DNA from: Escherichia coli
GTDB taxonomy: Bacteria; Pseudomonadota; Gammaproteobacteria; Enterobacterales; Enterobacteriaceae
Assembly (NCBI RefSeq): GCF_030013595.1
Contig: NZ_CP122768.1
Direction: 5' to 3' (one strand)
DNA: 64,000 nucleotides
Shown here piece after piece: positions 45,845 to 47,156 of this stretch (position 1 is its first letter; every line of letters starts with the position of its first letter). The notes under the pieces were generated by a model. It saw only the letters and a list, made by a program, of their open reading frames with translations. It had not been told where the DNA came from and did no database searches. The translations under genes were made by a program, and so were the position numbers.

Positions 45845-46498
45845 TCATAGCCAGCGCCCGGATATTTCTTCCAGTTTTTCCAGAGCTGGCTTGCAGGCCG
45901 CATCAATAACTTCACGGACCATTCCGGCGAGCTGTTCTTCTTCTGTCGGCGTTGTTACTTCCACACCTGATGGTTTCCCGCCCTTATCCCATACGCCCAA
46001 CGGTACGAGCGCAACGTGATCGATAAGAAATGGCGTACCCTCAATGAAAAAATTGTCCTCGCCCATTACATCAGGAACTTCTGCCCCACCGGACGCACCA
46101 CAAAACACAACCGACGGGCTGGTGGATACCTCCCCCCGTGCTTTCTGGATGTAATCGATGATTTCCTGCCCGTAAATCCGGCATACGCCCCACACCTCGT
46201 CACCGCGAATATACGGCAACATGACGGTGCCAATAATGCGCGACCGTTCGCCCACGTCTTCAAGGGTTTTGCTTTCGGGATGGTCGATAATGACGGGTAC
46301 TCCGGCGCAACGTTCCAGGAACTGCGGATTGAGATAAGTTTGCGGTGAACGCCAGACAAATTCTTTTTCTTCGGCGCGATAGGCCATTCCGGTTCCTGTG
46401 ATACGCAGGTTAATCAGCCACATGTTGGAAAACTGATAAGGCGACGGTAGCTGACCGTCCCGAATCTGCTTTGCCGCCTCAATTTCTGTTAAAAGCAT
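45845..46498 (-). CDS. hypothetical protein (island cargo)
   Basis: 217 aa ORF in same orientation as island operon; no motif I can assign. Confidence 0.55.
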   Translation of the reverse strand: MLLTEIEAAKQIRDGQLPSPYQFSNMWLINLRITGTGMAYRAEEKEFVWRSPQTYLNPQFLERCAGVPVIIDHPESKTLEDVGERSRIIGTVMLPYIRGDEVWGVCRIYGQEIIDYIQKARGEVSTSPSVVFCGASGGAEVPDVMGEDNFFIEGTPFLIDHVALVPLGVWDKGGKPSGVEVTTPTEEEQLAGMVREVIDAACKPALEKLEEISGRWL

Positions 46499-46562
46499 AA
46501 TGTCCCCCGGTTATAAGCAATAAGCCCCACCAAATCCGGCAGGGCTGAAATCAGCACGTTTT

Positions 46563-47156
46563 TCATGCCCCCGCGAGGCTTGCAACGTTAATTTTAACCA
46601 GGCGACGGGGAGGGATTTTGAAAGCACTAAGCCAGTTATTCGGATCCCCCTGATATTCAGTAATCCGCCGTCCGGCTTCATCCATTCTTACGGTTTTACG
46701 CAAATAGCCCGGCGTATTTTCCACAGCCCACTGAACACTGTCTTTTGCAGCCTGGTAAATCTGATCTTCCAGCACCGCCAGCGTTGCAGAATCTGAAACG
46801 GAACGAATATCCACATCACTGAATTTTTTAGCCAGCTTCTGTGCACCAATTAATGCACGCTTGCGGTAATCCATCGACTTTTCACCAGCAAACGGGGCTG
46901 GAGCGCGACGGCCCATATTGCTGTATGCGGAATCCGCTTTAGCCTGGGCTTCTGCCAGTGAGGATTCATCTTCGACTGACGCGACGATGTTTTTATTCGC
47001 GTCATCCTCGTCCGCTTTTGTGAAATCCTGTGCGGGGATCGCATTCAGAATTTCGATAATCTCCTGCGGAGTGCTGCCCTGCGACTCTGACAGAGCGTTA
47101 ACCACCTCCATCAGTTTTAATCGCAAATCTTCTTTGCTTGCTGGCATTTTTACCAC
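46563..47156 (-). CDS. hypothetical protein (island cargo)
   Basis: 197 aa ORF, acidic central region; no motif I can assign. Confidence 0.55.
   Translation of the reverse strand: MVKMPASKEDLRLKLMEVVNALSESQGSTPQEIIEILNAIPAQDFTKADEDDANKNIVASVEDESSLAEAQAKADSAYSNMGRRAPAPFAGEKSMDYRKRALIGAQKLAKKFSDVDIRSVSDSATLAVLEDQIYQAAKDSVQWAVENTPGYLRKTVRMDEAGRRITEYQGDPNNWLSAFKIPPRRLVKINVASLAGA

Follow-up and report, generated by a model that had tools for sequence, protein, structure and literature searches.

The 64,000-nucleotide (nt) stretch of an Escherichia coli chromosome analysed here (contig NZ_CP122768.1; the window) contains a phage satellite of about 10 kb, in which two adjacent open reading frames (ORFs), ORF197 and ORF217, are almost certainly a diverged, split copy of a head protease-scaffold gene of the kind present in helper-type phages. 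Most probably, the pair is a capsid-morphogenesis module that tampers with the assembly of the helper capsid. Both proteins match the same family, phrog_6216, whose profile has 545 positions: ORF217 corresponds to positions 115-315 (E = 2e-79) and ORF197 to positions 405-544 (E = 8e-47). Moreover, residues 39-168 of ORF217 match Pfam PF09979 (DUF2213/Pa193_gp24; i-Evalue 4.1e-6, 27.3 bits), and proteins identical to ORF217 are named 'DUF2213 domain-containing' in RefSeq; ORF197 has no Pfam domain and no PF09979 match. An earlier reading of the window, made from the DNA letters without database searches (the sequence-only reading), had seen nothing by which either protein could be assigned to a known family and had regarded the pair as the best candidate for an undescribed function. 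Neither view can be upheld, since both proteins fall into phrog_6216 and are homologous to a phage head protein, with ORF217 also in PF09979, and the pair is recognizable as a copy of a head protease/scaffold gene rather than as novel cargo.

A tblastn search of a phage collection revealed 14 phages that have a single gene holding both parts, including Escherichia phage Rac-SA53, the Klebsiella phages Chronis, RothC and RothD, Pantoea phage PdC23 and five Yersinia phages vB_YenM. In the protein of Rac-SA53 (ALP46870, 430 amino acids [aa]), residues 1-220 align with ORF217 with 54% identity, and residues 295-423 align with residues 63-191 of ORF197 with 64% identity. The phage protein is composed of the protease domain, a helix, a long charged linker and the C-terminal domain (C-domain), in that order; the linker of the Rac-SA53 protein, a charged stretch of some 75 residues rich in Lys, Ala and Glu, is without counterpart in the satellite. 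The phage gene order is TerS (terminase small subunit), TerL (terminase large subunit), portal, head-morphogenesis protein, fused gene, phrog_6268 and major capsid protein (342 aa in Rac-SA53, locus coordinates 8912-9940), and because of its slot between the portal and major capsid genes, the fused gene is assigned as that of the head protease/scaffold. Phage homologues of the C-domain of ORF197 are also encoded in the head module, near the major capsid gene. Pfam DUF2213 is now named after gp24 of Pseudomonas phage Pa193, a virion protein whose gene lies beside the decoration and capsid genes; cryo-electron microscopy showed a helix-turn-helix (HTH) of gp24 attached to the inside of the capsid at the five-fold vertices, and gp24 was interpreted as a scaffolding protein.

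The C-domain belongs to a large family. Its profile retrieved 2226 cluster representatives, always with the domain at the C-terminal end. Among the best 150 of these 2226, 80 are fused to the protease domain (40 of the 80 have an N-terminal NUDIX domain as well), and the remaining 70 are stand-alone proteins, mostly of 215-370 aa. Linker length in these 80 fused proteins has a median of 131 aa and is at least 75 aa in 79/80.

The satellite is built differently: there are two genes, that of the C-domain first and that of the protease second, the long linker is gone, and merely 56-60 or so residues, which are satellite-specific, precede the C-domain in ORF197. The single phage found with a split gene has the protease first, opposite to the order in the satellite. 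This gene, on the metagenome phage contig ERZ19037549 scaffold_1260 (locus coordinates 6255-8561), consists of a 449-aa NUDIX-DUF2213 ORF, a gap of 397 nt and a 186-aa C-domain ORF; it is either truly split or frameshifted within its repetitive linker. A comparison of loci in IMG/VR gave a clear-cut picture. All satellite-sized loci (17/17; 16 on contigs of 10-16 kb and one on a 57-kb contig) had genes for ProQ and PerC, a small ORF, ORF197, ORF217, two optional genes and the TerS-like gene, and a tblastn search for head genes (portal, TerL, capsid) in these 17 loci was negative. Conversely, all loci on the other contigs of 5-64 kb, most of them 21-64 kb (63/63), had the fused gene, which in nearly all cases was surrounded by a full TerL-to-capsid head cluster.

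The arrangement is not restricted to E. coli. Satellites of Pantoea agglomerans and Klebsiella aerogenes encode, one after the other, a 57-aa ORF, proteins of 190-199 aa and 221-224 aa and then TerS genes, and they differ from the E. coli satellites in their integrase and replication genes. An identity matrix places the satellite copies in one group (55-98%), with 50-65% identity to the copies of Rac-SA53-type and Pantoea phages and 35-41% to that of Chronis; this separate cluster suggests an old capture that has been maintained since. E. coli cq9 (NZ_CP031546.1, 2326000-2375900) has an island with an identical late module near smrA, combined with another integrase and another primase. Thus, the late module has been shuffled among phage-inducible chromosomal islands (PICIs) that differ in their integration and replication modules.

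ORF217 is predicted to fold like a prohead protease (T4 gp21, herpesvirus assemblin), followed by one C-terminal helix; the likeness to T4 gp21 and assemblin lies in this predicted fold, at a sequence identity of just 9-16%. In 24 satellite and phage sequences, H73, S127 and D160 were invariant and H161 was conserved in more than 90%, which makes H73 and S127 candidates for the catalytic His and Ser. In ORF197, about 60 satellite-specific aa at the N terminus precede the C-domain of about 130 aa, and residues 61-180 were modelled by AlphaFold2 with a predicted local distance difference test score (pLDDT) above 90. A fold search, one of the checks proposed in the sequence-only reading, was informative for ORF217, with its matches to prohead proteases; the predicted fold of ORF197 had no significant match in PDB or BFVD. 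When the sequences of solved structures were searched, the family profile gave NUDIX proteins alone, via its fused members, and ORF217 or the phage protein alone gave nothing useful.

The name NUDIX hydrolase, given to ORF197 homologues in RefSeq, was rejected for ORF197: it has no NUDIX domain, and the NUDIX part of the phage proteins aligns to neither ORF. Homologues and relatives of ORF197 also go by the names 'TolA' and 'translation initiation factor IF-2', and none of those named in any of these three ways has the corresponding domain; the misnaming arises because phage relatives carry an N-terminal NUDIX fusion and a Lys/Ala/Glu-rich linker. We also considered a common origin of the ORF197 N terminus and the ORF217 helix from the same phage helix, which would have pointed to tandem duplication with reciprocal loss or to a pairing interface. 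This was discarded, as hhalign found the C-terminal helix of ORF217 to be homologous to the phage helix (E = 3e-6) and the N terminus of ORF197 to match neither.

That both ORFs are genuine genes, as the sequence-only reading had judged from their coding appearance, was borne out by their database homologues (58 for ORF217 and 103 for ORF197), by orthologues with 55-75% identity in Citrobacter, Enterobacter, Pantoea and Klebsiella and by the ratio of nonsynonymous to synonymous substitutions (dN/dS), which against E. coli UMNF18 was 0.12 for ORF217 and 0.16 for ORF197 and indicates purifying selection. Stand-alone homologues of each of the two proteins are present in Citrobacter and Enterobacter. 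Their extent and common orientation (Table 1) were confirmed as well, and so was their location between the regulatory/replication part of the island, with the ProQ and PerC genes and the small ORF, and the TerS-like gene. The likelier start of ORF197 is the ATG at 47147, with the ribosome-binding site AGAGGTGG just upstream; the resulting protein has 194 aa, as do the identical genes annotated in RefSeq. The C-terminal end of ORF217 is altered in the window: it reads ..ISGR followed by WL and the stop codon, and relatives read ..ISGRLAQLEK... In islands of the UMNF18 type, two extra genes lie between ORF217 and the TerS-like gene (locus coordinates 2509-5230), one encoding 205 aa (phrog_11810) and one encoding 679 aa with a C terminus of the lytic-transglycosylase, tape-measure-like kind (phrog_7694). 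The window has neither of them between 45675 and 45845; the deletion that removed these two downstream genes from its island also cut into the end of ORF217. Homologues of the extra genes, with up to 93% identity, follow the tail sheath gene of Rac-SA53-type phages, and therefore some satellites carry tail/ejection genes of the helper. Neither extra gene had a PADLOC match, and the 205-aa gene showed no homology to rac44, which in the phage comes next after the protease-scaffold gene.

Several lines of evidence make Rac-SA53-type prophages the candidate helper. Among 5426 complete E. coli genomes, 33 have the ORF197/ORF217 pair and 80 have a complete Rac-SA53-type head module. At least 18 of the 33 pair-bearing genomes also have the head module, against 0.5 expected (Fisher P = 1e-25, a value that overstates independence because many of the strains are related enterotoxigenic E. 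coli [ETEC] isolates from pigs). Several of the satellite and phage contigs in IMG/VR derive from the same genomes, and in strain cq9, only about 8 kb separate the satellite island from a complete Rac-type prophage, which is located at ttcA and carries a full-length homologue, along with ADP-ribosyltransferase/AB5 toxin genes. In P. agglomerans (GCA_014839175.1, JACYNF010000003.1), a satellite of about 12 kb with the pair is inserted in terL of a prophage, in the orientation of the late genes. The satellite separates the coding regions for TerL residues 4-343 and 332-442, both junctions have the 13-bp direct repeat TTTTCATGGAAGA, and the host prophage encodes a full-length protease-scaffold homologue. 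This is the configuration of helper-embedded PICIs (Mageeney et al. 2023) and fits the idea of late-gene capture put forward in that paper; unlike these, the island in the window resides in the chromosome beside tRNA-Pro and not in a prophage. The swapped gene order may go back to a helper-embedded ancestor that excised imprecisely and took both flanks of the helper gene with it. Beside its integrase gene, the Pantoea satellite has a TumE/HVO_A0114 toxin-antitoxin pair.

How could the pair act on the helper? In PICIs, the slot before the small terminase gene is that of capsid morphogenesis; it is occupied by CpmB/CpmA in Staphylococcus aureus pathogenicity islands (SaPIs) and by Rcm in SaPIpT1028. 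Because of its position and ancestry, the slot of the pair is read as one of capsid morphogenesis, too. We propose that ORF197 serves as a short alternative internal scaffold, a 'mini-scaffold', which would compete for the helper capsid protein by taking the site normally bound by the C-domain of the phage protein, as CpmB and Rcm do. Without the long spacer, ORF197 would favour smaller shells sized for a genome of 10-16 kb. ORF217, in which the conserved His and Ser are retained, could then be a maturation protease acting in trans, because shells built with ORF197 would otherwise be without the helper protease, which comes fused to the scaffold. Together with the adjacent TerS-like protein, the pair would channel helper heads to satellite DNA, to the detriment of the helper yield. 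The satellites have 10-16 kb and the Rac-SA53-type phages 44-52 kb, a ratio typical of size-redirecting satellites. We put the chances that ORF197 and ORF217 redirect capsid size at about even. More tentative is the full scenario, in which a PICI family turned the protease-linker-scaffold gene of its helper into a spacer-less mini-scaffold plus a free, active protease and so makes Rac-SA53-type heads (probably T=7) assemble as shells of satellite size. Two points weigh against redirection: capsid binding by the C-domain of ORF197 is argued by analogy, and in the case of the PICI EcCICFT073, capsid size is not redirected and no phenotype was seen for the capsid genes it has captured.

As the main alternative, the pair could be a purely dominant-negative inhibitor: ORF197 would cap the capsid protein and untargeted ORF217 would cleave scaffold or capsid protein early, with the result that the helper yield drops, no small capsids arise and concatemers of the satellite fill the full-size heads that remain, as with EcCICFT073. 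We regard this as rather unlikely, even though it can draw on the same homology and conservation data as size redirection, EcCICFT073 uses phage-sized capsids and interferes by other means, and the splitting of a multidomain assembly protein into its domains would be a classic decoy design. A block in head assembly hurts the satellite as well, which itself has no capsid genes; the sizes of satellites and helpers fit the size-redirecting pattern; and a simple decoy needs no apparently active protease. Alternatively, the pair might provide the helper with spare parts, backing up its protease/scaffold for normal heads, for instance in helpers whose version of the gene has diverged or is limiting, and leaving size and yield unaffected. 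PICIs are known to capture late genes of their helpers, a back-up role has been proposed for these, and the catalytic residues are retained, but the satellite copies form a cluster of their own with just 50-65% identity to any phage version, the linker of every full-length phage protein is missing, and the helper gene interrupted in the embedded Pantoea case is terL and not the protease-scaffold gene. Such a supporting role is therefore improbable. We consider it very improbable that the genes are decaying, non-functional remnants of a captured late gene. The gene was split and re-ordered and has lost its linker, ORF217 of the window has its C terminus changed by the deletion, and the capsid and decoration genes that EcCICFT073 has captured showed no phenotype, but intact ORFs with 55-75% identity exist in at least five genera, their order and position are constant wherever the context was read, they are under purifying selection, and their core residues are invariant. 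Finally, anti-phage defence or metabolic cargo unrelated to capsids, such as a NUDIX hydrolase, is hardly credible: PICIs often carry defence systems and RefSeq/UniRef names such as 'NUDIX hydrolase' and 'TolA' point that way, but PADLOC gave no match for ORF197, ORF217 or the neighbouring genes, ORF197 has no NUDIX or other Pfam domain, and the NUDIX name is inherited from phage fusions whose NUDIX part is absent from both ORFs. The sequence-only reading had offered capsid remodelling or anti-phage cargo as possible functions and PADLOC as a check; with that check negative for both ORFs and with homology to a head protease/scaffold, the former part is supported and the latter is not.

Capture of helper late genes by PICIs and mimicry of the scaffold by SaPIs are already known. 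CpmB/CpmA of SaPI1 and Rcm of SaPIpT1028 are small helical proteins that are encoded beside the satellite terS, resemble the capsid-binding end of the helper scaffold and compete with it for the major capsid protein, and small capsids are the result. ORF197 is like CpmB and Rcm in that it carries the C-terminal domain of a helper scaffold and is encoded directly upstream of the TerS-like gene region. Unlike them, it is a clear homologue of the whole 130-aa domain (64% identity) and is paired with a homologue of the protease domain, which SaPIs do not have. The likeness is one of proposed function and of position only, as searches of PHROG, Pfam and NCBIfam gave no match to CpmA/CpmB or Rcm. 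With the phage protease-scaffolds (ALP46870 of Rac-SA53, gp4 of Chronis and gp24 of Pa193), the pair shares homology to their two ends. These phage proteins are single polypeptides, often with an N-terminal NUDIX domain, encoded inside a complete head cluster, whereas the satellite version is made of two genes in reverse order, without long linker or NUDIX domain, in an element without capsid, portal and TerL. A functional analogue is gpO of phage P2, which combines an N-terminal protease with a C-terminal scaffold.

Like PICIs of the EcCICFT073 type (Fillol-Salom 2018, 2019), the island has int, alpA, pri/rep with origin iterons, PerC and a late module, and it also resembles them in size and in its attachment (att) locus, yejM-narP. 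EcCICFT073 has captured the helper late genes c1499 (capsid-like) and c1500 (decoration-like). Unlike EcCICFT073, the island has a different late module that lacks capsid and decoration homologues and shows no homologue of Rpp at the sequence level, and its captured gene is the protease-scaffold gene of a different, Rac-SA53-type helper. Capsid-forming PICIs (cf-PICIs) encode a prohead protease, as is predicted here, but in addition they have genes for capsid, portal, head-tail connectors and TerL and assemble heads of their own; the island is not a cf-PICI because neither capsid nor portal nor head-tail adaptor/connector nor TerL is encoded in the window or in the 17 related loci.

In the founding paper on Gram-negative PICIs, genes for capsid remodelling were not identified, and we found no description of a PICI with a split protease/scaffold of the phrog_6216 type in the literature searched. 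The pair is a concrete and genetically testable candidate for capsid remodelling in enterobacterial PICIs. A candidate helper can be named, the Rac-SA53-type prophages, one of which carries genes for heat-labile enterotoxin IIa, and there are natural strains that hold both partners, for example the pig ETEC isolates, ETEC6335, cq9 and UMNF18. In addition, a widespread mis-annotation is explained and a large family of phage scaffold C-terminal domains, currently without Pfam model, is defined. If the proposal is correct, it would be the first mechanism of capsid-size redirection identified for PICIs of the E. coli type and the first case of a satellite that does not form capsids but supplies its own head protease. 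It would also mean that satellites can evolve size determinants by trimming helper genes and not by inventing new proteins.

By structural definition, the island is a Gram-negative PICI-type phage satellite: it has 10.0 kb, att repeats, unidirectional int, alpA and rep with downstream iterons. It lies between two 26-nt direct repeats, adjoins tRNA-Pro and yejM and has every gene on the minus strand (Table 1); the E. coli chromosomal genes around it in the window are the ccm genes, narP and yejO. The right att repeat is similar, though not identical, to the published att core of PICIs at yejM-luxR. In the window, tblastn searches found no portal, TerL, capsid or other head gene, including those of Rac-SA53, apart from the pair, and no helper genes were present. 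The RefSeq annotation of near-identical islands contains no tail or lysis genes, with no search aimed at these having been made, and an Rfam search of the island found the tRNA alone.

Table 1. Features of the satellite island, listed from its right to its left end (positions in the window)
Feature	Position	Strand	Remarks
Right att copy, 26-nt direct repeat	54028-54053		about 120 nt from tRNA-Pro (54172-54248)
Tyrosine integrase of the island	52721-53962	-	
AlpA-like HTH gene	52193-51987	-	
Icd-like gene and DUF4222 gene		-	listed after the AlpA-like HTH gene and before the RepA-type helicase
RepA-type helicase/primase-like replication protein	48855-50270	-	phrog_2850/906; RefSeq name
CCTCACTTTTT-type iterons, five copies	48530-48856		spacings 83-141 nt; from repeat families
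ProQ/FinO-domain protein, RNA chaperone-like	48388-47846	-	with PerC directly upstream of the late module
PerC-family regulator	47849-47562	-	
Small ORF, 65 aa (57 aa as annotated in relatives)	47187-47384	-	first gene of the conserved late module
ORF197	47156-46563	-	197 aa from GTG
Stem-loop, 10 bp, GC-rich, weak T tract	46523-46546	-	terminator-like in a scan; inside the 64-nt gap between ORF197 and ORF217
ORF217	46498-45845	-	217 aa
175-aa TerS-like gene	45147-45674	-	N-terminal HTH like that of a terminase small subunit or excisionase
TTGACACTTTT, four copies within 200 nt	44940-45141		just downstream of the TerS-like gene
Left att copy, 26-nt direct repeat	44047-44072		96% identical to the right copy, spacing 9981 nt

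The iterons directly downstream of the RepA helicase gene are probably the replication origin of the island. The genes for ProQ/FinO and PerC are kept in 17/17 of the related IMG/VR satellite loci, and in all 17 the small ORF, with 91-100% identity, lies directly upstream of ORF197. The small ORF corresponds to the 57-aa gene of the Pantoea and Klebsiella satellites and had no match in Pfam or PHROG. It may be speculated that the stem-loop between ORF197 and ORF217 attenuates read-through and thereby lowers the amount of protease relative to the scaffold-like protein.

The 175-aa TerS-like protein is a putative packaging-specificity protein. It matches phrog_57 (TerS) over its N-terminal 42 aa only (E = 5e-7), with a weak match to Pfam HTH_17, and in the Pantoea and Klebsiella satellites its slot holds two clear TerS genes. 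It has no sequence similarity to TerS of Rac-SA53, and a phmmer search of the PDB sequences, including the solved RppC, gave no match up to E = 10. The TTGACACTTTT repeats next to its gene are found nowhere else in the window and are a candidate packaging site (pac/cos). When these repeats and the promoter regions of the satellite were compared with the helper-type prophage DNA examined, no matches beyond the satellite were found.

Two minor observations concern the phages. In many phages, with gp4 of Klebsiella phage Chronis (locus coordinates 3599-5212) as an example, a NUDIX domain is fused to the N terminus of the head protease-scaffold; by this fusion, a NUDIX enzyme would be delivered into procapsids and perhaps be ejected with the DNA. 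Furthermore, the DUF1073 portal of Rac-type prophages is named 'anti-CBASS protein Acb1 family protein' by PGAP, a name that looks misleading because the protein matches portal families (phrog_146, Phage_portal_3) and its gene is in the portal position.

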